Part shown: positions 19,467-47,957 of the stretch, in pieces
How the letters are laid out: each line of letters opens with the position of its first letter
How positions within the stretch are numbered: the first letter of the stretch is position 1
Origin: an uncultured Candidatus Bathyarchaeia archaeon
GTDB taxonomy: Archaea; Thermoproteota; CALKCG01; B24
Length of the DNA: 64,000 bases
Reading direction: 5' to 3'
NCBI GenBank assembly: GCA_964463005.1
Contig: CAYWZZ010000001.1
Span: forward strand, 30,952 to 94,951
Notes under the pieces: generated by a model
Told to the model about the DNA's origin: nothing
What the model saw: the letters and a program-made list of their open reading frames with translations, nothing else
The model's database searches: none
Translations under genes and position numbers: made by a program

Positions 19467-20229
19467 CTATTCTACTTTAAAGTTTCTCTTTAGGTATTCC
19501 AAAGCGAATTTAGCACTTTCAATTGAATCCATACTCGGTATATCGTTCTCAACTATATACCATTCTACTCCGGATGATTCGCAAGCTTTAACTACAGCTT
19601 TAAAATCTATCACGCCACATCCAAGCTCGATAAATCCTTTACTAACCCTATCCTTCATATCTTTAAGATGGACTAGAAAACACCTGTTTTTAAGAGCTTT
19701 TATAACTTCACAAGGGTCATACCCTGCATAATAGATCCAATAAACGTCTAGTTGGAAGAACACGTATGATGGGTCTGTGTTTTTAACAAGTATATCGTAT
19801 ATAGGGGTTCCATCAATCTTTCTCTCAAATTCTACAGCGTGATTATGCATACCAAACTTCAAACCATAATTCTCGGCGTCTTTACCTATGGAATTCATCT
19901 TCTCAGCTACTTTAAACACATAAACTTAAATCGTTGATACGTCTTACATCCGGCTCGGAAACCACATATTTAAGCCCGAGTTTATAAGCATAGTTGAAAA
20001 CAGTACTCCGCTTGTTGGATTCTATTACGTCAAAACTGACGTGGGTTGAGATCGGTTTAAGGTCGATTTGACCAAGAAATACTCTAAGCTCATCAACATC
20101 CGCTGTTAAAAATGGATGACCCGCGAATTCAACAAATCTATACCCGGATTCTCTAACCATGCGAAGAGCGTATCTATAATCCCTAGAGACCTTGTCCCTT
20201 ACAGTATAAAGTTGGAGGGCGACCTTCAT
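19467..20229 (-). pseudogene. Sugar phosphate isomerase/epimerase (xylose isomerase-like TIM barrel), split by a frameshift near 19912-19919
   Basis: ORF 19912-20229 encodes the N-terminal half (ALQLYTVRD...) and ORF 19467-19919 the C-terminal half (...GMHNHAVEFE...HLKD...). Removing one T from the AGTTTATG run would fuse them. Confidence 0.6.
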
Positions 20230-24242: not shown

Positions 24243-26702
24243 TCACCATTTTAAAAAGCCGTACTCTAACATGGATCTAAATTCATCAACTGTAAGGTCT
24301 TTAGGGGTTTCAACTAAAATCTCAGCCCTGCTATTTGGAGGAATGCTTAGGTAATTTTCAGAATATTTCGCGTCGAGATTCCTAAGTTTAACGTAAACTC
24401 CATAAGCGTAGTTTTTAACGGTTAAAGTTACCTTAAATGTCCGTGACTTTAGTTTATTAACTTCAACATTTAAAATTGGATCTGGAAACTCTACATGTTT
24501 AAACTTGCCAATTAAGACGTCATTAATTACTTTACTTCCATTAAACGACACTTCTGCGACGGCTACGGCTCCTCTAAAATTCTCAACATCTACAATTAAA
24601 CATTCTTTCGCAGAGTTTGCTTCAATCTCTAGATCTTCAATGGTTTTACTAAACAATAATTCACCTGTAAGTTTCTGAATGGAAAGTTTTAAAACTCCAC
24701 GTATACATTGAAGTGTATCATTCACTATGGAGACCTGAAGATTTCGTCCTCTTAAATTTAATGCGATGTAAATAGGGCTGAAAGCCCTCTTAACGTAGTA
24801 ATAGGCAGGTTTAGGTCTAAAGTAGTAATCTATAAGGCTCCAGCTTATAACAGGCCAGCAATCATTAATCTGCCATATGAGACACCCATTCGTTTTAAAC
24901 ATTCTGCTTCTCCAATGGGATATAGCGGTTTTCAAAGCTTCTCCCTGATTAAGTTGCGTTAAATATATGAATTTTTCAAGGTTTTCCGGAACTCTAAAGT
25001 AACCTGCTAAAAACCTGTATAGTCTCTCAGCCCCTTCATGCATCTTATTATGCTATTCCATAACTTGACTTTGAACCCATCTATCTTCCTCAGCCGTAAA
25101 GGATTCAACGGTTTCAATACATGGAAAGGCTTGAAAACCAAACTCGCTGATAAACCTACCGTTATCCAGCAAATAGGCCCTCCAATCCCTCTACCCACTC
25201 CATACATCCCAGCTATGTCTATCGCCCTCTCTAGGACTATCGGGATCGTCTCCCCCATATGGACTACTAGGCCAATACGGTCTGGTAGGGTCAAGCCGCT
25301 TAATTATTTCAGGTATAACTTTATGGTAGATTTTCTCACCATAAAATCTATCCCTCACCCACCATCTAGCTTTAAAACCCCATTCATTTTCGTTATTTCC
25401 ACACCATAGTACTATAGATGGATGATTTCTAAGCCTCTTAACATTCTCCTCAACTTCCCTCTCAATGGAAGCTATGAAGAAGTCTTCTTCAGAATACTCT
25501 CCGCATGCGAACATAAAGTCATGCCAAATCATTATACCTAATTCATCACATAAATCGTAGAAATCGTCGGCTTCATACACACCACCACCCCAGACCCTGA
25601 GCATGTTCATATTCGCCTTAGATGTTGCTTCTAAAAGCTTTCTATAGATCTCTTTGTCAACTCTAGGCAGAAAACTGTCTGCTGGAATCCAGTTGGCACC
25701 TTTACAGAAAACGCATATACCGTTAATTTTAAATATGAAGCACTCTCCTTCTTCATCTTCAGTCCTTTGAAGCTCAATGGATCTAATGCCGAATCTGACC
25801 TTACGACTATCTAAGATAATATTTGCATTATTTAAAAGGAGGGCGTTAAGTGTATACAGGTATTGAGCCCCATAGCCTCTTGGATACCAGAGTTTAGGCT
25901 TTTTGACTTTAAGTTCAGAGCGAAAAATGTTTAACCCTTCTTTAGCCAATCCTTCTACGCATACTTTAACGTTTTCCTCCTCTATTTTAAAAATTAATCT
26001 AACATAACTCGGTTTAGTAGAGTAAACTTCAGCCTCAACTTCAACCAAAGCTTCTTCTTCTGAAATTCTTAAAGGTAATGCTGAAATGTAACCTAATCTG
26101 GCCTCATCGTATGCTAGCAGTTCAACGCTTCTCCATATACCAACAGTTGGCAATCTTGGATCCCAATCCCATCTAAATGAATACTGAGCCTTCCTACCAT
26201 ATACTCTAGCAGTGTAGAATGCGGCCCATAACTTCCCATATTTAGATTCCAGCATCTCCAGAACCTTTGATGGAGATTTAAATCTAACGACTAGTATGTT
26301 TTTCCCAGGTTTCACAAGTCCATCAACTTTAAAAATCCACGGGTGAAACATGTTACACGTTTCACCGAGCATTACACTGTTAAGCCAAATCTCTGCGTAA
26401 GTATCTAAACCGTGGAAAATGAGTTCCAGACAGTTCTTGCTGGCTATGTGATCTGAAACTTCGAATTCTTTAACGTATAACCAATCCTTCTCCTCAACCC
26501 ATGAAACTTCAAACTCGTTCATCCTATAGAAGGGATCTGGAATCACTCCATTTCTCATAAGGTCTAAATGAACTACACCTGGAACCTCAGCCTTTAACCA
26601 GTCTTCGGCGGTGAGATCTAACTTTGAAACATCTATACACTCATTAAATTCTAGCTTCTTAAAAAACCAAACGCCGTTAAGGGGGATTCTTATGATAGAC
26701 AT
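24243..26702 (-). pseudogene. GH2 beta-mannosidase-like glycoside hydrolase with two in-frame TAG codons (25191-25193 and 25053-25055)
   Basis: A single reading frame gives LRNHPSIVLWCGNNE (acid/base region), GDRHSWDVWSG[TAG]RDWRAYLLDNGRFISEFGFQAFP (nucleophile region) and ...VME[TAG]HNKMHEGAERLYRF.... The ORF track splits this into three pieces, but there is no frameshift. Confidence 0.65.
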
Positions 26703-34897: not shown

Positions 34898-35900
34898 CTA
34901 TTTCCACATCCTAGGATACGTGTTAGGCTTCATTATTACTCTTTCAGTTTTAACAGCTACACCTTTTTCTCTTTCAAGCATTTCCTCACTTGTCATCAAA
35001 GCTTTACCTAAAGCTACAAGTTCACCCTTAAGAGTAAATATTGCCACTAGATCATCAACTTCTATATCAGAGTTTAGCCTTACAATACCAGGTAATGCTA
35101 GACCTGCACCGTGACATATAGCGTCAACCGCTGTATCGCGGATCCAAATCTTCGGTATAAGAGCGGTAACCTCTTCCACAGGCTGAACGATAGACCTGAG
35201 TGGTTTTTCATCCCCAGCCCTATATGCTTCGACTGCGCCAACCAGATCCCTCAACGACGTTAAACCTCTATCTTCAGCAAAAGGACCAACTCTGGTCCTT
35301 CGAAGCTCTCTCATATGCGCCCCACAGCCTAAAACCTCGCCCATATCGTGTATCAATTTTCTGATATATGTGCCTGCTTGACAGCAGACTCTTAAAAGTA
35401 CATGACGCTTATCAACCTCTAGCACATCTATGTAGTAAATTCTCCTGGTTCTAAGAGCTTTTTTAACAGAAGATCTTAGGGGAGGCTTTTGGTAGATATC
35501 GCCCTGAAACTCTTCAGCAACTTCCCTAACCCTGTCCTCGGAAACATCATCATGAAGCTTCATTACACATACGTATTCTTTGCCTCCAGTCAATAGAACT
35601 TGGAGAACCTTTGTAGCTTCATTCAACGCTATAGGCAGTACACCAGTAGCGGGGGGATGTCTCCGAGGGAGACTCTAGAGTCCCCCCGTGACCAGCTTTC
35701 TTAACGTTCATAATCCTCTTAACGGTAGCTGTTACATCGTGACTCGTAGGACCAGCTGGTTTATCTAAAATGATGACTCCATATTCTAGATGTTCATCTA
35801 TGGTTCTTTTCCAAGGCGGTTTACCGTAAGCTTCATTTGTCTCTTCAAACGTTTTGTAAAGTACTTCTCTTTTAATTTCCCAAGGCGGTTGTAGCCTCAA
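34898..35900 (-). CDS. cbf5: H/ACA RNP pseudouridine synthase Cbf5 (TruB family), interrupted by a putative 16-nt BHB intron
   Basis: N-terminal exon (35675-35900) ends ...[10 protein letters not shown]-terminal exon (34898-35658) starts [17 protein letters not shown]... with TruB and PUA domains. Removing 16 nt restores the universally conserved GHGGTLDP motif. Confidence 0.8.
35659..35674 (-). other. Putative archaeal bulge-helix-bulge intron inside cbf5 (boundary ambiguous by 1-2 nt)
   Basis: Coding strand reads GGGGGGACUCUAG|AGUCUCCCUCGGAGAC|AUCCCCCC. The insert forms a GUCUC/GAGAC hairpin, and the flanking exons pair G6A/UC6. Confidence 0.55.
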
Positions 35901-37538: not shown

Positions 37539-38963
37539 TCACTTCTCAAGAATGGGTCTTAAAGCAGGATACATCTCTACAACCCTCTCCTGAACTAGAA
37601 GCTGATAATACTGGTAGGCTATGTCTACGGATAATAGTACACCTGTACCAGATCCGAACACATTAAATAGGTCGGATACCACCGCTATAAACCCTATGAG
37701 CGCCCCTCCGAGAATCGCAACAACTGGAATATACTTACTCATCACAGATTCGACGCTTTTAACGGTCCGCCTTCTACCTGGTATTTGAACACCAGCATCT
37801 ATGAGCTGTTCAGCTACATTCTTAGGCCCCATTCCACCGACTTCTATCCACATGATTGAGAAAACGATGCATAAGGATACAAATGCTACTATGTAAACTA
37901 TCGTCCTAATAGGATCTTCCATAGCTGATGTGAGGTTTCTAGGTGATGTCAAATAGTATGCAACGCAACCCTTTAGTGGCTCCATGGTCTCTGGGTCAAA
38001 TTGAGCCATAATGTTTAACCAGATGTTTTGATTTGAATAATTAAACCTTGCCCAAATAAACCTCAATCCGACGAAAATGTTGGCAATTAGAGCTGACGTG
38101 AATATAACAGGGATAACCGAGACATATAAGAGTTTAAGTGGAAACCTGGCTCTGAAGCCTCTAAACCTTGCGTAGGATATGGGTATTTCTATTCTAACCC
38201 CTTCCAAATACATTATCACTAGAAAAGTTATAACAGTCGATATAAAACCGATCATGTTGGGCGGATTTTCTGTACCACTCCTCACAAATGCTTTAACAAC
38301 ATCTTCTCCCTTTATGAGACCTTCTATGAAGGCTGGAAGAGCCCCGAAGAGTTTTCCATCGTTAGCTATCCCAGGCAGAGGGGAGAAGCCAAACCACCAT
38401 ATTTGCTTAGCAACACCAGCAAGTATGAAGAGGCTTATACCGCTTCCCAAACCCCACTTTTGAACCATTTCATCTAAGAGTATTACAATTATACCAGCGG
38501 CTAGAAGCTGAACAAAAACCAATACACCAGCCTCTATGGATAGTAAGCCGTAAACCCCACCTAAAATGTATACAGCAGCTTGGAAAATGGTCATGAGTAT
38601 GCTCATAAATCTGTTAGCCGTTGTGTAGAGGACTCTATCCTCTGGATTTGAAAGGTCACATTCTACAATTCCAGAACCGACTAAAAGTTGTAGGATTAAA
38701 CCCCCGGTAACTATTGGCCCTATACCTAGCTCCATAAGTGTTCCATGTGTAGAGGCAAATATGACTCTAGCAACTATGAGCGGGTCATACAACCCCCGGT
38801 AAGCTATACCGTATAGGGGGGTTTCGCTCATAATGTAGTATATTAAAAGGGCGAGAAACGTCCATAAAAGCTTAGAGGAAAAACTAACCTTTCTTTCAGG
38901 CTTTTTAACTTCAAACATTAACCTTGAGAAGGGTCTGAAGAAGTTTAGAAACTTACCCGGCAT
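37539..38963 (-). CDS. secY: Preprotein translocase subunit SecY
   Basis: 474 aa, 10 TM helices, downstream of rpl15. Confidence 0.9.
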   Translation of the reverse strand: MPGKFLNFFRPFSRLMFEVKKPERKVSFSSKLLWTFLALLIYYIMSETPLYGIAYRGLYDPLIVARVIFASTHGTLMELGIGPIVTGGLILQLLVGSGIVECDLSNPEDRVLYTTANRFMSILMTIFQAAVYILGGVYGLLSIEAGVLVFVQLLAAGIIVILLDEMVQKWGLGSGISLFILAGVAKQIWWFGFSPLPGIANDGKLFGALPAFIEGLIKGEDVVKAFVRSGTENPPNMIGFISTVITFLVIMYLEGVRIEIPISYARFRGFRARFPLKLLYVSVIPVIFTSALIANIFVGLRFIWARFNYSNQNIWLNIMAQFDPETMEPLKGCVAYYLTSPRNLTSAMEDPIRTIVYIVAFVSLCIVFSIMWIEVGGMGPKNVAEQLIDAGVQIPGRRRTVKSVESVMSKYIPVVAILGGALIGFIAVVSDLFNVFGSGTGVLLSVDIAYQYYQLLVQERVVEMYPALRPILEK

Positions 38964-38969
38964 AAATCA

Positions 38970-39416
38970 TCAAACCTTAACCGTTATTATTTCTCCACCA
39001 GCCTTCTTAATCTTCTCAGCAGCATTCTCAGTAAAACTGATCGCTTTAACTATTACTGGAGTTTTTAGCTCGCCCCTTCCTAGAAGTTTACCGTACCCTA
39101 GAAGCGGTAAGTCTATAACGGGTTTACCATTTTGAAGTTCAACTTTCTCCAGCTTTGACAGTATATCCGTGAGTTCTCCGACGTTAATCTCTTTAAACTT
39201 CAACTTAATCTTCTGCATAGGTGATTTAAAACCCCTCTTGCCAAAATGGTTTGGAGCGTATTTAACCGTCCAAGTCCACTTATGTTTATGTAAGCCAGCT
39301 TTACCGAAACCTCCTCTCATACCACTTTTCCTATGCTGACCTACTTTACCCCAACCGCAGGTTCTAGATCCTCTAAGTTTTCTTATCTTGCGGAGTCTAG
39401 TTGGCATGAAAGTCAC
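38970..39416 (-). CDS. rpl15: 50S ribosomal protein L15 (uL15)
   Basis: ...RGGFGKAG... glycine-rich signature. Confidence 0.9.
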   Translation of the reverse strand: MTFMPTRLRKIRKLRGSRTCGWGKVGQHRKSGMRGGFGKAGLHKHKWTWTVKYAPNHFGKRGFKSPMQKIKLKFKEINVGELTDILSKLEKVELQNGKPVIDLPLLGYGKLLGRGELKTPVIVKAISFTENAAEKIKKAGGEIITVKV

Positions 39417-39439
39417 CGGTTTTCGAGAGAAAAAGGAGA

Positions 39440-39985
39440 CTACTCTATTTTAAGTTTCTCTCCTTTTGTACTATGTTCAACCTTTTTAAGCCGTACTTCG
39501 AGGACGCCGTTCTTATAAGTTGCTTTGGAAGATTTGGGATCTATAGTGCTTGGAAGCTCAAGTTCCTTACGATAGCGTCTATTGGGAGCATTTACATTTA
39601 TCATTAGAGATTTCTCCGTAGCATTAATTTCTATCTGTTCTTTCTCAACTCCAGGAAGCTCAGCTACAACGACTATTTCATCGTCCTTCTCTATTACGTC
39701 AACTAAAGGTTCAATTTCAGATTTTACTTCAGGACCATATCTGCCTGGGAAAATGTTACCAAATTCTCTTATCACGGGTTTCCCATCAGGGCCTATACGG
39801 ATTGAGAAACCATAAGTGTATACCTTAGATTCACCAGGCTCCATTCTCTCAAACATTCTCTCTGGTTCGAATCTAAAACTTCTACGTATAATATCCTCTA
39901 TCATTCTGTTCATACGCTCGAATTCTTCGTATACATCAAACCACCAATCTCTTCTACGTCTTGACCATCGCTCTTCATCACCCAT
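39440..39985 (-). CDS. Small heat shock protein (Hsp20/alpha-crystallin family)
   Basis: C-terminal alpha-crystallin domain ending ...ATYKNGVLEVRLKK. Confidence 0.7.
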   Translation of the reverse strand: MGDEERWSRRRRDWWFDVYEEFERMNRMIEDIIRRSFRFEPERMFERMEPGESKVYTYGFSIRIGPDGKPVIREFGNIFPGRYGPEVKSEIEPLVDVIEKDDEIVVVAELPGVEKEQIEINATEKSLMINVNAPNRRYRKELELPSTIDPKSSKATYKNGVLEVRLKKVEHSTKGEKLKIE

Positions 39986-40040
39986 AGTAGCACCTCCGAG
40001 ACATATAGGAGAGAACTCAGCTATAAACTTAGTTCTAAAC

Positions 40041-40496
40041 TTACAACATTCTCTTTATTAGGGATGCTATATTTGAACCCCAATCGCCAAAACTACCTTC
40101 GGGATACGGTTTTTTAATTGACTTATAGCCTTTACTAGGTGGATGTAAACGGAAAACTTTTTTAAGCCTTGAAATTTCTTTCAAGGAAACCTTACCTTTG
40201 TATAAGGCTTCAGCAAGCTCATCTATCGAGTTGAACCCTAGAAGCTTAACATTATCTTCATTAAGCCTACCCACCCCCTCTATTTCACCCCTCTTCTTCA
40301 AGAGTTCTTTCAGTGTTTCCAAGTCTATGGTACCGTAGGCTACGTAATGCCTCACTTTATTTACCATACTTATGTATGGTTCAGTATTTGGTAACACTAC
40401 ACAGTGGTTAGGTTTTCTCAAATTCAATCTCTTAAGAGTTTCAGCAAAATCCTTTCTAACGTTTACGGTTCCTCTTATTCTAATGACCGCTATCAA
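40041..40496 (-). CDS. rpl30: 50S ribosomal protein L30 (uL30)
   Basis: MIAVIRIRGTVNVRKDFAETLKRLNL. Confidence 0.85.
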   Translation of the reverse strand: MIAVIRIRGTVNVRKDFAETLKRLNLRKPNHCVVLPNTEPYISMVNKVRHYVAYGTIDLETLKELLKKRGEIEGVGRLNEDNVKLLGFNSIDELAEALYKGKVSLKEISRLKKVFRLHPPSKGYKSIKKPYPEGSFGDWGSNIASLIKRML

Positions 40497-40511
40497 CGTC
40501 TAAAACCTCCT

Positions 40512-41147
40512 TTAACGTTTTTGCAGAGCCAACTCATACGTGCTTTTAAGAGCTTCAAAGGTGGCTTTTATCAGAGAAGAATGTGTTCTAGTGGAGCCGA
40601 ATGTTCTAACCCAACAATCCTTTATACCAGCCAATCTTAGTAGAACTCTAGTAATATCACCAGCTACCAGCCCCAAACCTTTGGGGGCAGGTAGAAGAAC
40701 GACCGAAACGCCTCCACATCTACCTTCAACTTTAAATGGCAGAGAATGAGGAAGATTGCAATCACACTCCCACGAGCCGCATCCACGTCTAATGATTGTC
40801 ATGTTTAATTTAGCGTCTTTGATGGCTTTTTGGAAAGCTGTTCTCCACTGGGTAGCTTTTCCAAAACCTATGCCTAAATGACCATTCATATCTCCAGATG
40901 CCACTATAACTCTAAACCTTGACCGCTCACCAGCATCTGTCTGCTTCTGGACAAAAGCTGTATCTAAAACCTCGTGAGTTAAATTTGGAAGGAGAATGTC
41001 TATTATCTCAGGTTCTCTAATCTTATACCCATTTCTAAAAATCTCTTCAATAGAGGTTATTTTCCCTTCCAACACCAGTCTACCTAGAGTAGTTTTAGGA
41101 GTCCAACCTTCTAGAATACTCTTATCGGATGCCCCGGTTTCAAACAA
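40512..41147 (-). CDS. rps5: 30S ribosomal protein S5 (uS5)
   Basis: dsRBD plus S5 C-terminal domain motifs. Confidence 0.9.
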   Translation of the reverse strand: MFETGASDKSILEGWTPKTTLGRLVLEGKITSIEEIFRNGYKIREPEIIDILLPNLTHEVLDTAFVQKQTDAGERSRFRVIVASGDMNGHLGIGFGKATQWRTAFQKAIKDAKLNMTIIRRGCGSWECDCNLPHSLPFKVEGRCGGVSVVLLPAPKGLGLVAGDITRVLLRLAGIKDCWVRTFGSTRTHSSLIKATFEALKSTYELALQKR

Positions 41148-41149
41148 GT

Positions 41150-41743
41150 TTAAACCCTCCCATAAGCCTTTAGAATTCTATTTTTAACCTCATTGAAGTG
41201 GTCTACAATTGACTCTGCGTCCAAACCTTTCTTAAGATAGTTTGAGAATACTCTCTTATAAAGCTCTGGATTCTCAGTTTTAAGTTTACTGGCATATTCT
41301 GCAATATGCTTCCCACAAATTCTATCGATGCTCGGAAGTATCTCTTCTCCATGGGGGATTTCAAGCCCTGCATCTAAAGCACCTTTAAGAGCTATCGAAA
41401 TACGACCCCCCTTGGTGGGTTTAAAAATACCAGAATCTAATACAGCCTTATTCACACCAATTTTCATGCATTTTAAACCAGCCAATAAACCAGTTAGATA
41501 CGCAATGGGAGAATTATTCCCATGACCAAGCCAACCGAAGTCTCTCATAACTTCTCTACTGTGAGCAGATGCAAGAACAACATCACCTTTAAGTGTAGCT
41601 TTAACAACTTGAACTATTATATTCTTCGATGTTCTTCTGATTACAAACCTAGGCAAACCAGATAGTAGAAGTTTTTTTCTACGTCTATAGTCTGTTTTGA
41701 ATTGAAGCCTTCTCTTCAAAGGGAATTTACGTATCCTATTCAT
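41150..41743 (-). CDS. rpl18: 50S ribosomal protein L18 (uL18)
   Basis: Sequence and position. Confidence 0.9.
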   Translation of the reverse strand: MNRIRKFPLKRRLQFKTDYRRRKKLLLSGLPRFVIRRTSKNIIVQVVKATLKGDVVLASAHSREVMRDFGWLGHGNNSPIAYLTGLLAGLKCMKIGVNKAVLDSGIFKPTKGGRISIALKGALDAGLEIPHGEEILPSIDRICGKHIAEYASKLKTENPELYKRVFSNYLKKGLDAESIVDHFNEVKNRILKAYGRV

Positions 41744-42183
41744 TTAAATCGCCTTCTAGCTAAGTTGTTAACCTCTATATAACGTTTTAAAGACGCTATG
41801 CTATCGAAAGCTCCACCTTTAGCCTTAAGATAGAGTTCTCTGTAAACTCGCCTAGTTATTATCCTCCTGTCTCTTAAGTACTTGAGAAATCTTCTTAGAG
41901 CTCTTACCTTAGCGGGCCAAACGTTTTCCGGGTTTAACCTTGCTTTGAAAGCACCCTTTCGACTACCAGGGCCCCTACGTTTACCCTTACGTGTTCTAGC
42001 TCTAACGCGACTTGTTCCTTTTACAGGTCTTTTGGATATTATTCCACGTTCTATAAGACCTTTAACATCTTCCCTCGTTAAAGCAGACGTTACCTCCTCT
42101 AATTTTGATGGGTCTATCCAAACCCTATTAACTCCAACTCCGAGTATTTCAGCAGCTATTCTTCTTTGAACGCTCACATTCAT
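41740..42183 (-). CDS. rpl19e: 50S ribosomal protein L19e
   Basis: MNVSVQRRIAAEILGVG. Confidence 0.9.
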   Translation of the reverse strand: MNVSVQRRIAAEILGVGVNRVWIDPSKLEEVTSALTREDVKGLIERGIISKRPVKGTSRVRARTRKGKRRGPGSRKGAFKARLNPENVWPAKVRALRRFLKYLRDRRIITRRVYRELYLKAKGGAFDSIASLKRYIEVNNLARRRFK

Positions 42184-42186
42184 CGT

Positions 42187-42663
42187 TTAACCTCCAGTAG
42201 ATGGATTTAATATTCGTATATTCAATTCCTTCGCCTTCTCCAATATTTTAAGCCTCTTCCTTCTACCAACTGTATGAGCTATACGTGCAGCTTGAATGGT
42301 TGGATTTAAACTATCGAGATCATCGGGATTATAAACGATTACTTCCTCAAAACCAGAGGGGTGTAAGTTACGAACTGCCCTAGGGCTGCCATAACCAGAT
42401 TTAACTCTAGCAGGCCAACCTTTAACTTCACGTCTCATCTTATTTGAATGACCCCTTGGAGCTCTCCAATTCTCCTTAACCCTAGTAAGCCTCCAACTTT
42501 CACATCTTACAAAGTCGGGTCTATTGGCGTCAAGTTTAGTCCTAATTTTTAAAAGTCTTATAATGTCTGTGGAAAGTTTAGGTTTAATCTTTACCGATGT
42601 TTTCTCAGAAACTGTTTCCTCAGATGACTTTTCTAAGGCTCTATCTTTGTCTTCAGATGTCAC
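42187..42663 (-). CDS. rpl32e: 50S ribosomal protein L32e
   Basis: ...WRAPRGHSNKMRRE... signature. Confidence 0.85.
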   Translation of the reverse strand: MTSEDKDRALEKSSEETVSEKTSVKIKPKLSTDIIRLLKIRTKLDANRPDFVRCESWRLTRVKENWRAPRGHSNKMRREVKGWPARVKSGYGSPRAVRNLHPSGFEEVIVYNPDDLDSLNPTIQAARIAHTVGRRKRLKILEKAKELNIRILNPSTGG

Positions 42664-43202
42664 ATCCCCACCTCCCTATGGTATATGAAGATTCCATCTA
42701 AGAAGACCCTGGGGTCTCTACCGGTGATTTTAGTAGCGTTCTCTATGTTAGCTGCTGTCTGACCCACTTCTTCAATATCTATTCCTTTGACCACTATATC
42801 ATCTTGCTCAACTGTAACTTTCACGTTTCCAAGTATTTTCGCATATCTCGGTGCGCGTTCACCTATGAAATTTTCAATGATTACATAATTACCTTTAACT
42901 CTAACAGTCATTGGAAAGTGCGCGTATACTATTTTTAAACGGTACGTAAAGCCTTTTGTAACGCCTATTATCATGTTATTTATATGAGCGGCTATAGTAC
43001 CTACTAGGGCTCGTTTATTCCTTCTAGGTTTTCCTATGACTTCAACTATTACTTTATCATCGCCATTTTTTCTGATGGTGAGTTGGCCCATGGCATGAGA
43101 GAAGTCTTTACAAAGCTCACCCAACGGTCCTTTAACCTTAACCTTTAAACCATCTACTTCAACGCTGACGCCTTCAGGAATTTCAATAATTCTAGAACTC
43201 AA
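42660..43202 (-). CDS. rpl6: 50S ribosomal protein L6 (uL6)
   Basis: Sequence and position. Confidence 0.9.
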   Translation of the reverse strand: MSSRIIEIPEGVSVEVDGLKVKVKGPLGELCKDFSHAMGQLTIRKNGDDKVIVEVIGKPRRNKRALVGTIAAHINNMIIGVTKGFTYRLKIVYAHFPMTVRVKGNYVIIENFIGERAPRYAKILGNVKVTVEQDDIVVKGIDIEEVGQTAANIENATKITGRDPRVFLDGIFIYHREVGM

Positions 43203-43220
43203 GGTTTTATACCTCCATGC

Positions 43221-43613
43221 TCAGTAGACATAGGCTAGAAGTTTTCCACCTAAGTGTTTAGCCTCAGCCTCTTTATGAGACATTACTCCCAAAGGTGTTG
43301 AGAGTATTAAGATTCCTATATCTCGAGATGGAAGAAACATCCGTTTATATTCATCAAGTTCTTTAAGTCTAACGGAAAATCTAGGTTTAATAGCTTTACA
43401 CTTATTTATGTTACCCAGAAGTTGTACTCTGAATTTACCCCCTCTTCCATCATCTATAAGTTCAAATTCACCTATATAGCCGTAGATTTGCATAACTCTT
43501 AAAACATTCCCTATTAATTTAGAGGCGGGGTAAATTATGCACTCTCTCTCATGTCTAGCTTCACTGTTGGTGATTATTGCCAGAGCATTCGCAAGAGTAT
43601 CATTCATAACCAT
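43221..43613 (-). CDS. rps8: 30S ribosomal protein S8 (uS8)
   Basis: [12 protein letters not shown]... ATG at 43613 is preceded by GGAGG (7-nt spacer). Confidence 0.9.
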
Positions 43614-43626
43614 AACGCATCCTCCT

Positions 43627-43791
43627 CTAATTGTACTTCTTAAAGCCAAGTTTTGGAGCTACTTCTCTAAAACATTGACGACATAGCATAAGTCCATACT
43701 GCTGAATAACTGGGCCGTATGAGCCGCATCTGGAGCAAGGTCTAGAACCTTTACCAAACTTACGTTCCTTTTTAGGCTTCTGTTTAGCCAC
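43627..43791 (-). CDS. rps14: 30S ribosomal protein S14 type Z (uS14), zinc-binding
   Basis: Not in the ORF track (54 aa, GTG start). [54 protein letters not shown] with a CxxC...CxxC motif. Terminated by TAG. Confidence 0.8.
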
Positions 43792-44337
43792 TTAAACCAC
43801 CTCCACACCCAACGTCTCTCTAACGAATGCTATCGATTCCTCCTTTGTTAACCTATGACTCTTTCCAATTTTGCTACGCTTCCATTTTCTTCTAGTTACT
43901 CTATAACCTGGTCTTTCAACGTTTACACAGACATCCATACCTATTATACCCAACGCAGGGTCGTATGTTGTGTTAGGTAAGTCTAAATGGTTTCTTATAC
44001 CTATTGAAAAGTTTCCATGTTCAGTGAAGCTACTAGCAGGTATTTTATAGTTAATTGCTTCGAGGACCCTTTTGAGGAAGTTCATGGCTTTACTTCCCCT
44101 TAAAGTTACTTTAGCAGCTATGGGCTCACCCTTATGTATGTTGAAATCCCGTATTGTTCTCCTCGCTCTACATACGCATGGCTTTGCACCAGTTATGATT
44201 TCGAGGATTTTTAAAGCCTTTTCCAGCGGCTCACCACTCTTACCAACACAGGTATTTACAACAACCTTAGTTATCCTAGGTTTAAGCATGGGATTCATGT
44301 AGCTCAAGATTTTCAACCCCCGGGTAGAGATAAACAT
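43792..44337 (-). CDS. rpl5: 50S ribosomal protein L5 (uL5)
   Basis: Sequence and position. Confidence 0.9.
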   Translation of the reverse strand: MFISTRGLKILSYMNPMLKPRITKVVVNTCVGKSGEPLEKALKILEIITGAKPCVCRARRTIRDFNIHKGEPIAAKVTLRGSKAMNFLKRVLEAINYKIPASSFTEHGNFSIGIRNHLDLPNTTYDPALGIIGMDVCVNVERPGYRVTRRKWKRSKIGKSHRLTKEESIAFVRETLGVEVV

Positions 44338-45062
44338 GGCTTTTCATATCCAACTGGAAAAACATAATCAAGAATTGTGGAGACATTTAAGCCATTTTCG
44401 ATTTCTATGACAGCGGAAGCCTTAGAGGTTAATGAGCCCGGTACCACTTCAACGAGTTTACCCCATTTACCGACGTTGCGACCACCGATAATAAGAACGC
44501 ATACACCTTTTTCAAGTTTAAAATGATCGAGAGTAAGTGGCTTGCTAATATCCATTTTTAAAGTATCGTGAACTTTATACACATCCTCAACGGGGTTTTT
44601 CGGATCTGAAACACGTATCATCATGTTATAGCCATCATGCATGTTAAGTTGAATATGCCCACCCTTCAGGGTAGATTTACCTATTATCTTCCGAAGTTTA
44701 AATTGTGCTTCTTCAGGTTGAATCGGATGTGGAATCAATCCTTTACTTGAGGGAAGTATGCGGTAAAATTTATCGAGTTTCTCTATATGTATTACATCCA
44801 TAAGTCCAACGGGAAAGCCCTTATCACGGACAATCTTACCGTCGACTTTAACGTATCCCCTATTCAGGATAAACTTGACTTCTTTAGCTGTGTGAGCTAG
44901 ACCGAGGTAATCCCTTATAAGGATTTGAAGAGGAATACATCTATCTATCGCATAAGGCCCTGGGCTAGGTTTAACGACCCATTTAAAGGTTTTTCTAGGT
45001 ATATTCCATGATTTCGGCGCCGCCAATCGTTTTAAATGTCTTGACCCACTAATCTTTCCCAA
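44313..45062 (-). CDS. rps4e: 30S ribosomal protein S4e
   Basis: MGKISGSRHLKRLAAPKSW. Confidence 0.9.
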   Translation of the reverse strand: MGKISGSRHLKRLAAPKSWNIPRKTFKWVVKPSPGPYAIDRCIPLQILIRDYLGLAHTAKEVKFILNRGYVKVDGKIVRDKGFPVGLMDVIHIEKLDKFYRILPSSKGLIPHPIQPEEAQFKLRKIIGKSTLKGGHIQLNMHDGYNMMIRVSDPKNPVEDVYKVHDTLKMDISKPLTLDHFKLEKGVCVLIIGGRNVGKWGKLVEVVPGSLTSKASAVIEIENGLNVSTILDYVFPVGYEKPCLSLPGG

Positions 45063-45075
45063 GATAAAAACACCT

Positions 45076-45465
45076 CTACGCTTTTACCACTTCAGGAGTT
45101 TGAATCTTAATTTTCCGCTCTAACGCTTCAACCCTTCTCTTATCATCTAAGTTGAGCTTAGTTATGATTACTTTAGATGGATGTATGGGTATAGGAACTT
45201 TTGAACCGTCGACTTTCTCACGAGTGACACCTTCCACGTAAATACGCATTTTATCCCGATCCACGGCTAAAACAGTACCTGAAAAGCCTTTGAAATCCCC
45301 TCTGACGATTTTAACAGTATCTCCTTTACGTATTGGAAAAGATCTGCGCTTATACTTATCCCTGAGCTCACCGGATAAGTGTGCGGAAAGCATCTTAGCC
45401 TTAACGTGCTTAGAAGCGTTAAAGAGCGCACGTCTCTGTTTTCTAGGTTGTTTAGACATAATCAA
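45076..45465 (-). CDS. rpl24: 50S ribosomal protein L24 (uL24)
   Basis: KOW motif ...IRKGDTVKIVRGDFKG. Confidence 0.9.
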   Translation of the reverse strand: MIMSKQPRKQRRALFNASKHVKAKMLSAHLSGELRDKYKRRSFPIRKGDTVKIVRGDFKGFSGTVLAVDRDKMRIYVEGVTREKVDGSKVPIPIHPSKVIITKLNLDDKRRVEALERKIKIQTPEVVKA

Positions 45466-45470
45466 CCACC

Positions 45471-45935
45471 CTATACGATCATACCCGCTAATGCCGCAAT
45501 TCTAGGCCATCTCTCAGCAGCTTCCATCGCAACGGAGCCTCTTATTTCAGTACCCCGTAGATCTCCCTCAGGTGTTAAGAGAACCGCTGCATTATCTTCG
45601 AAACATATCCAAGTTCCATCAGCTCTTCTATATGGCTTTTTCTGACGGACTATGACAGCGTGCATGACCTGCCCCTTCAATTCAGCTACGCCTCTCCTAA
45701 CACTTACAACAACCATGTCACCTACAGCCGCCGACGGCATTCGTTTAAGCCTACCCTTATACCCTATGACTCCTATTAACTTTAGAAGTTTTGCTCCGGT
45801 GTTATCAGTACACTCTAGGTAAGCACCTACGGGTAAACAACGTGGTATATGAGGCCTATATTCTATGACTGCTACGGCTGATACGGCTCTGGTTTTAGGT
45901 CCACCCTTTGGAGGCCCTTTACGGGACATTTTCAC
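45471..45935 (-). CDS. rpl14: 50S ribosomal protein L14 (uL14)
   Basis: ...[16 protein letters not shown]... signature. The true start may be internal. Confidence 0.85.
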
Positions 45936-46243
45936 CTACCCTCCAATTTTTCAATAACTACGAAATGTACGGTCTTACTTAAAGGTCTACACTCGGCAAT
46001 GCGGACCTTATCACCCTCCTTGACTTTCAAACATGGTGGACAATGTGCGGGTATTCGGCTACGTCTACGCTCATATCTACGATATTTGGGAACATAGTGA
46101 AAGTACTCTCTAGTGACAATAATCGTATTCTGACTTTTAGCACTAGCGACTATTCCTTCAAAAACTTGGCCTCTTGGATGTAAGACCCCATGGAAAGGAC
46201 AATTTTTATCTCCACAGCTGACATCAGAAGACATCAAGGTCAC
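45932..46243 (-). CDS. rps17: 30S ribosomal protein S17 (uS17)
   Basis: OB-fold sequence ...[17 protein letters not shown].... Confidence 0.85.
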
Positions 46244-46509
46244 CTCTTAAGTCTATCTTCAGGCCTCCCTACGAGTTTTATACCGTCTAGTTCGACCTTA
46301 ACACCATCTTTAAGCGTAAATACAAATGTGCAGACTGCTTTCGGAATAGCTTTAATACGTTGTCTGGATTTAATATATATCATGTTCTTAGTTTCATCTA
46401 CAACTTCTCCTTCTACACTCTCATATGCTCTACACAATGATTTAACGACATGAACTTTAAGACCTATAAGTTCATGCTTCAATATGTTAAAGGGAGTAAT
46501 TGAGCTCAT
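46240..46509 (-). CDS. rnp1: Ribonuclease P protein component 1 (Rpp29/Pop4)
   Basis: ...[12 protein letters not shown]...[13 protein letters not shown]... Sits in the conserved slot between rpl29 and rps17. Confidence 0.7.
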
Positions 46510-46733
46510 TTAGACACCGCCTTACGAAGCTTAAGCTCCTCTTCCCTTTGAACTGTGAGAATACGGGCAATGGTACGTCTTATTTCTCTCACTCTAGAAT
46601 AATTTTCAACTGCCCCACCAGCTTTAATAACGGCGTTAAGTTTCATTAGCTCAATCTTAAGCTCAATAAGACGGCGAGCTCTATCCTCAGGGCTCATCGA
46701 CCTTATTTCGCTCATTCTAAGAATAGGCATCAA
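46506..46733 (-). CDS. rpl29: 50S ribosomal protein L29 (uL29)
   Basis: Coiled-coil uL29 sequence. Confidence 0.85.
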   Translation of the reverse strand: MMPILRMSEIRSMSPEDRARRLIELKIELMKLNAVIKAGGAVENYSRVREIRRTIARILTVQREEELKLRKAVSK

Positions 46734-47383
46734 CTACCACTCTCCTGCTTAGACTCTTCACCTTCTTCAAATTCAATCTTTTGAGCTAAATCTTTAATAG
46801 TGATTTTGTCTGGAAACTCCACCCCAGGTGGTAGGATTGTAACCTTTATCCCAAATATTCCGGGTTTAAGCAACAGAGAATATACAGCCGATTTCACATA
46901 TTTCATAGCTGGATCTCCAGATTTAGGGAGATACCCTACTTTATACTTCTCATATCTAGCTCTTTCAGATGTAAGCTTGCCGCTTATCTTAACTTCAGCA
47001 CCTAATGCCCCCGCCTTCATAATACGTTCTAAAGCCCAGAATGCAGCTCTGCGGAAGTGTATACCCTTCTGCATGGCTAATGCTATTCTACTAGCCATTA
47101 TGTATGGGTTAAGCTCGGGGACTGGTATATCAGCCACAGCTATCTGAGGGTTATAAACGTTGAATTTGCTCTGAAGGTCTTTACTTAAAGCCTTAATTAT
47201 CTCTCCACCTTTACCTATGACAAGCCCAGGCCTTAATGCGAAAATTGTAATTCTAGTCCCTAAAGGCGTTTTAGAGATTTCAGCACCACCATATCCTGCG
47301 TCTTTCAAATACTCCATTAGAAATTCATCTAGCTTAAACCTATCCATGTACGGCTTTATGAAGTGTTTTCTAATTGCAGACAT
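46730..47383 (-). CDS. rps3: 30S ribosomal protein S3 (uS3)
   Basis: KH domain plus S3-C domain. Confidence 0.9.
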   Translation of the reverse strand: MSAIRKHFIKPYMDRFKLDEFLMEYLKDAGYGGAEISKTPLGTRITIFALRPGLVIGKGGEIIKALSKDLQSKFNVYNPQIAVADIPVPELNPYIMASRIALAMQKGIHFRRAAFWALERIMKAGALGAEVKISGKLTSERARYEKYKVGYLPKSGDPAMKYVKSAVYSLLLKPGIFGIKVTILPPGVEFPDKITIKDLAQKIEFEEGEESKQESGS

Positions 47384-47483
47384 CTACAGCACCGAGAATC
47401 CCAATCATTATTGAGACTGGCTAATCTAAGATTAGATGGCTTATTAATAAGGTTTACGAAAAATCGCCGAGTAGAGGTATGGT

Positions 47484-47957
47484 TTAAAGTTCGGCTAAAG
47501 CTATTTCAATATGAGTTAAAACTCTAAAGTTAGGAGTTGCACGGGCAAAGGCTCTAGGAGTATAACGTTTTAATACAGTACCTTTTTGAGCAGACGCATG
47601 TATGATTTTAAGTCTATCAACGCTCAGTCCCTTATACTCAGCATTAGCTTCAGCATTCTCTAAAACCTTGAGAATAGCTCTACACGCTTTGACGGGGTAT
47701 CTACCTGCGGACCACTTTTGTAAATCTCTTCTATGTGGAACCTTCTTTTTATAACGTCGATAGGGGATGCTTCTCTTAAGATTGATTACATCTTCCAGAA
47801 GACGCTTCGCATCATCTAGGGATAGCCCTTTTATAGCCCTACAAACTTCTACAGCAGCTTTATGAGAGATCCTTAAATCTCTACCGGAGGCTAGGACTGT
47901 TTTTTCAGGGTCTAAATTTTTCACCGAATAGCCCCAGTTCGGCATAGTTTCCACCAA
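47484..47957 (-). CDS. rpl22: 50S ribosomal protein L22 (uL22)
   Basis: Sequence and position. Confidence 0.85.
   Translation of the reverse strand: MVETMPNWGYSVKNLDPEKTVLASGRDLRISHKAAVEVCRAIKGLSLDDAKRLLEDVINLKRSIPYRRYKKKVPHRRDLQKWSAGRYPVKACRAILKVLENAEANAEYKGLSVDRLKIIHASAQKGTVLKRYTPRAFARATPNFRVLTHIEIALAEL

Follow-up and report, generated by a model that had tools for sequence, protein, structure and literature searches.

A probable 16-nt bulge-helix-bulge intron in the catalytic codon of cbf5 in a Bathyarchaeia archaeon

The stretch of 64,000 nucleotides analysed here (Candidatus Bathyarchaeia archaeon, assembly GCA_964463005.1, contig CAYWZZ010000001.1, positions 30,952 to 94,951; hereafter the window) carries on its minus strand a cbf5 gene whose reading frame is broken by 16 extra nucleotides within the codon of the catalytic aspartate. 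This insert is very probably a genuine archaeal bulge-helix-bulge (BHB) intron of the cbf5 pre-mRNA, spliced by EndA and RtcB. A BHB-type intron at the GHGGTLDP site was already proposed in the first-pass annotation of this DNA, and the proposal is borne out by the restoration of the reading frame, by boundaries that follow the BHB cut rule, by covariation across 17 homologous junctions, by purifying selection on the exons and by agreement with the published cbf5 intron (PMC2738675). The window intron is a known kind of intron in a new host, that is, an ordinary instance of a textbook curiosity and a modest taxonomic extension.

Reading frames and splice reconstruction of cbf5

As first pointed out in that annotation, cbf5 is split in the list of open reading frames (ORFs) of the window, into an ORF of 93 aa (35619..35900) and an ORF of 242 aa (34898..35626). 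The tail of the 93-aa ORF reads ...KKAGHGGTL followed by 18 unrelated residues, and the 242-aa ORF starts at (M)NEATK, inside ...NEATKVLQ.... At the junction, the coding strand reads GGG GGG ACU CUA GAG UCU CCC UCG GAG ACA UCC CCC CGC UAC UGG, and 28 nt separate the CUA (Leu) of GHGGTL from the ACU (Thr) of TGVLP, against the 12 that are needed. Deletion of AGUCUCCCUCGGAGAC (window 35674..35659, minus strand) yields a 987-nt ORF encoding a Cbf5 of 328 aa in which GHGGTLDP is restored; both the excess length and the frame-restoring 16-nt deletion had been correctly recognised, and the intron is exactly this sequence. The codon of Asp76 is split by the intron (G/AU), and an in-frame Asp arises only once the 16 nt are removed. 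The predicted junction of the spliced mRNA is ...GGGACUCUAG^AUCCCCCC....

The spliced product has the Pfam domains DKCLD, TruB_N, TruB_C_2 and PUA. Solved structures of Pyrococcus Cbf5 can be aligned with its residues 6-327 (E = 3e-121 to Pyrococcus abyssi 2AUS), a 10-residue stretch is identical, and the rebuilt Asp76 is, in the alignment, the D of their GHGGTLDP. Both exons are under strong purifying selection in the spliced frame, with ratios of nonsynonymous to synonymous substitution rates (dN/dS) of 0.036-0.081 for exon 1 (against relatives L001-L004) and of 0.042-0.076 for exon 2. Without splicing, the sole possible product is a 93-aa fragment devoid of the catalytic Asp, and Cbf5 synthesis therefore depends on splicing. 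The features of the gene and of its junction, all on the minus strand, are as follows (a slash marks a splice site):

35675..35900, minus: cbf5 exon 1; TTG start, codons 1-75 and the first base G of Asp76; DKCLD and the start of TruB_N, ending ...KKAGHGGTL
35659..35674, minus: cbf5 intron, 16 nt, AGUCUCCCUCGGAGAC; frame and GHGGTLDP restored on its removal, boundaries matching the BHB cut rule, homologous inserts in relatives
34898..35658, minus: cbf5 exon 2; from the last two bases of Asp76, AU, to the stop; rest of TruB_N, TruB_C_2, PUA
35681..35688, minus: helix h, 5' strand, CGGGGGGA; third base of His, Gly, Gly, first base of Thr; pairs with 35650-35657
35677..35680, minus: central helix H, 5' strand, CUCU (exon); second and third bases of Thr and first and second bases of Leu; pairs with intron GGAG
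35674..35676, minus: 5' bulge B1, AG/A, with the 5' splice site between 35675 and 35674; located manually as well as in the motif scan
35665..35673, minus: intron loop, 9 nt, GUCUCCCUC; length and sequence vary among relatives (alignment A2, see below)
35661..35664, minus: central helix H, 3' strand, GGAG (intron); from the alignment, covariation and RNAalifold
35658..35660, minus: 3' bulge B2, AC/A, with the 3' splice site between 35659 and 35658
35650..35657, minus: helix h, 3' strand, UCCCCCCG; third base of Asp, Pro, Pro, first base of Ala

Anatomy and folding of the junction

The BHB drawn by hand was recovered by the motif scan at 35688..35650, with a helix h of 8 bp. The central 4-bp helix and the two 3-nt bulges on opposite strands that define a BHB motif are both present, and the cut rule (between the second and third nucleotide of each bulge) places the cuts between 35675 and 35674 and between 35659 and 35658, which excises exactly the frame-restoring 16 nt. 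Bulge B2 is closed cleanly on both sides; B1 is closed by H on one side only. In the canonical hBHBh' motif, each outer helix has at least two Watson-Crick pairs (PMC7714728); the window sequence falls outside this definition, and five relatives with an h' of 2-3 bp (L005, L127, L128, L098 and L034) fall within it.

According to the proposed mechanism, cbf5 would be transcribed colinearly, and in the transcript helix h (8 bp) would form between the codons of Gly-Gly and those of Pro-Pro, and helix H (4 bp) between the Thr/Leu codon bases CUCU and the intron GGAG, leaving the two bulges AG/A and AC/A. The tRNA-splicing endonuclease EndA would cut between the second and third base of each bulge, freeing the 16-nt intron, and an RtcB-type ligase would join the exons, which would restore the reading frame and rebuild, from G + AU, the codon of the catalytic Asp. 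EndA cleavage and ligation in this organism are proposed on the model of the published crenarchaeal cases, and any regulatory role of the intron would likewise be extrapolated from them.

The unconstrained minimum free energy (MFE) fold of the window sequence contains the paired exon flanks together with an intron hairpin, GUCUCC/GGAGAC, and the 91-nt region around the site folds better than its shuffles (z = -3.1). The first-pass annotation had recommended a folding check for a BHB: the exon flanks pair and a BHB with 3-nt bulges can form, but the MFE structure holds a competing hairpin and the 5' bulge is relaxed. The complementarity of the flanking exons, (C)GGGGGGA with UCCCCCC(G), is present as announced. 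The helix at the splice sites had been taken for the intron's own hairpin; it is instead the 4-bp helix between exon CUCU and intron GGAG. The hairpin itself does exist at 35659-35673, but it does not qualify as a recognition element, given that it is not conserved (it is possible in the window sequence only). It uses the same GGAG as helix H, and the two exclude each other. The 12-nt palindrome that had been noticed, GACTCTAGAGTC, is found at 35671-35682 but is incidental, being lost in a relative with 94% identity (GACTCTAGAGCT).

Several points weigh against the intron as interpreted here. For this organism, splicing is predicted from sequence, and BHB-like geometry by itself is frequent by chance. 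On the intron side, h' amounts to at most one G-C pair, which leaves the 5' site in a 12-nt loop of the relaxed hBH type; according to the literature, relaxed hBH motifs are cut efficiently only by broad-specificity endonucleases of the (alpha-beta)2 or epsilon2 type. At 37 C, the BHB conformer of the window sequence is less stable than the MFE fold by 4.5 kcal/mol, since GGAG can be engaged either in helix H or in the competing GUCUCC/GGAGAC hairpin, and this hairpin is still favoured over helix H by 2.4-2.7 kcal/mol at 75-85 C. Finally, no EndA or RtcB gene is present among the 30 window ORFs scanned, although linkage of these genes to cbf5 is not required.

The geometry was rejected as evidence in itself, since 285 BHB-like motifs were counted on both strands of the window against a mean of 271 in dinucleotide shuffles; the weight lies in the coincidence of the motif with the frame boundaries and in covariation. 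Indeed, the chance rate of a BHB is about 5e-5 per combination of site and length, or 2e-6 with a flanking helix of at least 8 bp, and only two such combinations restore ...TLDP...; a BHB on the frame-restoring boundaries is therefore not due to chance. The comparison with homologues, given below, is even stronger evidence.

In addition, an outer stem GCUGGU/ACUGGU (35692-35697 with 35641-35646, minus strand) extends the BHB in both the MFE fold and the RNAalifold consensus. It consists mostly of G-U and G-C pairs and is built from conserved Ala-Gly and Thr-Gly codons, so that its conservation is inseparable from protein constraint. A search of the whole window against Rfam at gathering thresholds returned two tRNAs only, with no match at the intron site.

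Homologous junctions and alternative explanations

In a search of 5.8 billion proteins, every match above 62% identity is a C-terminal fragment of 221-246 aa, and all close relatives are therefore split likewise. When one genome per species was scanned, five close relatives (75-94% identity) came up; in each of them the frame breaks at residue 76/77 and 16-17 nt are inserted. Furthermore, the L34e-cmk-L14e-cbf5 neighbourhood is kept in JGI, ENA and Logan assemblies, in which cbf5 is called in two pieces. The comparison with related cbf5 loci that the first-pass annotation had called for was made with 17 distinct junctions (the window and 16 others; alignment A2), and the intron position is the same in all of them, with inserts of 13-34 nt.

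In this alignment, helix H is paired in 68/68 cells, that is, in all 17 sequences. One of its pairs is divided between C-G (eight sequences) and U-A (eight), and another occurs as C-G, U-G and U-A; two-sided changes affect two pairs of H and one pair of h. The observed covariation score was reached by none of 500 shuffles, and all slid registers scored lower. The exon strand of H varies only where the Thr and Leu codons remain synonymous, and these changes are offset by changes in the intron. RNAalifold independently predicts helix H and the 3-nt bulge B2, and at 11 of the 17 junctions the unconstrained MFE fold is the core formed by h, H and the 3-nt bulge.

Helix h is contiguous (7/7) in the whole window clade and is kept in archaeon HR01 (L037) through a swap from G-C to C-G (Gly GGC with Ala GCC). 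That register averages 0.7 contiguous pairs over 93 cbf5 genes that lack the intron, and 88 of the 93 have 0-1 contiguous pairs. The idea that the Gly-Gly and Pro codons of GGTLDP give helix h automatically, and so predispose the site, was rejected on these counts: helix h is specific to intron-bearing genes. Its 3' strand (35650-35657) is supplied by the Pro-Ala codons that follow Asp-Pro. These two residues are PA in the window clade, an unusual pair, whereas the 12 commonest pairs in the 93 intronless genes are of the type of KV, QV and AV, which suggests that a conserved protein motif of the intron-bearing Bathyarchaeia clade has been shaped by RNA structure. A metagenome scan was also run, with two patterns, one of which was the uninterrupted GHGGTLDP; 79 of the 80 loci among the matches listed are intronless and distant, a proportion that is not an estimate of intron frequency.

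The same data bear on the other ways in which the insert could be explained. It is scarcely credible that the 16 nt are a sequencing or assembly artefact, absent from the real genome. The window is possibly metagenomic and a palindromic region rich in G/C homopolymers can cause errors, but three independent assemblies, made from different samples, agree letter for letter over the 1003 nt of the cbf5 region with its insert, and at least ten other distinct members of the clade (JGI, ENA, NCBI, Logan) have an insert of 16-17 nt at the same site. A real insertion that inactivated cbf5 and left it to decay would account for a gene that is out of frame as written and split by gene callers, in a window where two other genes are broken. 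This explanation is nevertheless very unlikely: the two exons, whose frames are joined by splicing alone, are both under strong purifying selection (dN/dS 0.04-0.08); the insert persists to relatives with 75% identity, with a varying sequence and the helix pairing kept; in each related genome the scan found a single cbf5 locus, never a second, intact one; and Cbf5 is a core enzyme of the H/ACA ribonucleoprotein.

Translational recoding, whether through a programmed frameshift or through ribosomal bypass of the insert, or an enzyme put together from two separate pieces, the 93-aa and 242-aa products, would fit with both ORFs being intact and with the stable stem around the site, structured elements being able to promote recoding. 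Both are nonetheless highly improbable, as a frameshift would leave five foreign residues inside GHGGTL-DP and lose the Asp codon, and the catalytic Asp is in neither ORF product alone. Moreover, the conserved feature is a BHB with bulges at the required junctions rather than a slippery site or a pair of matching take-off and landing codons, and in the known cbf5 cases RNA splicing was seen by cDNA (PMC2738675). A real BHB intron could, lastly, be removed with deliberate inefficiency, the competing hairpin acting as a switch that throttles Cbf5 through regulated or temperature-dependent splicing. The stability of the window-specific hairpin over helix H at all the temperatures given above favours such a switch, and the cbf5 intron has been proposed as a negative regulator of expression by Watanabe and colleagues (PMC2738675). 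However, the hairpin is absent even in the relative with 94% identity and most relatives fold straight to the BHB core; the hairpin therefore looks incidental, and a switch is unlikely.

Known systems, host lineage and distribution

The published cbf5 intron is 16-44 bp long, interrupts the catalytic residue's codon, has BHB-like boundaries and contains no ORF (Yokobori et al. 2009, PMC2738675). It is cut between the second and third bulge residues, and cDNA from Aeropyrum, Sulfolobus, Desulfurococcus and others has verified its splicing (PMC2738675). It occurs in most Desulfurococcales and Sulfolobales, with a length of 16 bp in Desulfurococcus mobilis and D. mucosus, and is absent from Thermoproteales, Thaumarchaeota and Korarchaeum (PMC2738675). 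The window intron, with its predicted cuts, agrees with this family in every mechanistic feature. Indeed, it shares with the intron known from Desulfurococcales and Sulfolobales (Watanabe et al. 2002; Yoshinari et al. 2006; Yokobori et al. 2009) the gene and the insertion point in the catalytic Asp codon, and its 16 nt are within the published size range and leave no room for a coding sequence. Three Desulfurococcaceae genomes and one Sulfolobales genome (L029, L030, L033, L035), with frame breaks of 20-34 nt in the same codon, align base for base with the window at both junctions. The junction bases in common with the crenarchaeal intron are CUAG/AG...GGRGAN/AYCC, bases on which both the codons and the BHB impose constraints. 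There are also differences: the helix h of the window is of 8 bp, against 0-5 in the crenarchaeal introns, and is much stronger because the protein reads DP-PA instead of DP-KV; and h', nearly absent from the window intron, is long in the crenarchaeal introns, in which it is the exon side that is relaxed.

With the BHB introns of archaeal tRNA and rRNA (hBHBh', or relaxed hBH and HBh'; Marck & Grosjean 2003; PMC6379350), the window intron has in common two 3-nt bulges, a 4-bp helix and symmetric cuts, and presumably also EndA cleavage and RtcB ligation. In contrast to them, it lies in the coding region of an mRNA, where the exon strands of h and H double as codons, it has no tRNA body for recognition, and it is only 16 nt long with almost no h'. 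The BHB intron in the 5' untranslated region of HVO_1309 of Haloferax volcanii (PMC7714728) is, as the window intron putatively is, an EndA substrate within an mRNA. That intron is untranslated and its host is a euryarchaeon whose enzyme is of the alpha2 type, whereas the removal of the window intron, which interrupts a codon, is required for the frame. In eukaryotes, the mRNAs of HAC1 and XBP1 are spliced through cleavage by IRE1 and joining by a tRNA ligase or RtcB. The likeness consists in a small frame-changing mRNA intron, a structure-recognising protein endonuclease, a ligation of the tRNA type and an active protein that needs the splice; the difference is that IRE1 recognises paired stem-loops and not a BHB, and that stress regulation is proven for HAC1 and XBP1.

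The first-pass annotation had referred to the cbf5 intron of Crenarchaeota. The kind of intron is indeed the published one, but the host is labelled Bathyarchaeia, not Thermoprotei, and lies outside the orders known to carry the intron (Desulfurococcales and Sulfolobales), which bears on host range and not on mechanism. Four of the five nearest genomes were labelled Bathyarchaeota or Bathyarchaeia by their depositors, as are all named relatives of the window SecY, from 88% down to 53% identity. The Cbf5 protein itself is 52-56% identical to crenarchaeal Cbf5 and, in a rough neighbour-joining tree, groups with intronless Bathyarchaeota; other Bathyarchaeota Cbf5 proteins are full length, from genes without the intron.

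Same-site introns are also found in other lineages. The unclassified archaeon HR01 has an intron of 13 nt (L037:3221-3233), below the published minimum of 16 bp. Acidifodinimicrobium (Parvarchaeota according to NCBI, DPANN) has one of 16 nt (L034:3224-3239) with a helix CUUU/AAAG, and with L036 and L039 three genomes of Acidifodinimicrobium and related organisms carry it. In the metagenome lineage L098, the intron is 19 nt long (about 1729-1747). All loci with a frame break in this codon splice conceptually to a full-length Cbf5, and in the neighbour-joining tree, which is indicative only, intron-bearing genes fall in at least five clades, each beside intronless ones.

We give even chances to the view that the Asp-codon intron extends beyond a small group of Crenarchaeota, to a Bathyarchaeia clade with at least ten distinct relatives, HR01, Acidifodinimicrobium and L098, being either older than the split of the phyla and often lost, or repeatedly gained or transferred at one codon, with the change of the Bathyarchaeia motif from DP-KV to DP-PA supplying the exon strand of the helix. 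If so, this change would be a case of RNA-structure constraint overriding a conserved active-site neighbourhood. In reviews of 2020 and 2023, the cbf5 intron is still presented as a crenarchaeal feature, or as one that only a small set of related archaea possess. No cbf5 intron outside Crenarchaeota was found in literature searches, which left out most subscription journals, and the wider distribution is probably unreported so far.

That Bathyarchaeia, a DPANN lineage and others have an intron in this very codon reopens the question of when the only well-established intron of archaeal protein genes originated, and of why it is retained in a catalytic codon. In practice, gene callers give the cbf5 of this lineage as two fragments or as the C-terminal one only; since every database protein above 62% identity is truncated, the essential enzyme Cbf5 looks broken or missing in the annotated genomes of this lineage. 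The junctions also provide a set of very short (13-19 nt) natural substrates for testing the endonucleases of these uncultured lineages.

Two other interrupted genes and a marker operon were observed in the window. A GH2 beta-mannosidase-like gene (24243-26702, minus strand) is in one frame with two in-frame TAG codons (...DVWSG-stop-RDW... and ...QVME-stop-HNK...) and, because TAG is an ordinary stop in the window (27 of 83 ORFs), is probably a pseudogene. A xylose-isomerase-like TIM-barrel gene (19467-20229, minus strand) is divided into ORFs of 105 aa and 150 aa, with a frameshift near 19912-19925 and no inserted segment, and this break resembles a frameshift mutation or a sequencing error more than it does an intron. 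Directly upstream of the L34e-cmk-L14e-cbf5 cluster lies a large ribosomal-protein operon with SecY (37539-47957, minus strand), whose genes are useful phylogenetic markers; of these, SecY alone was used here.

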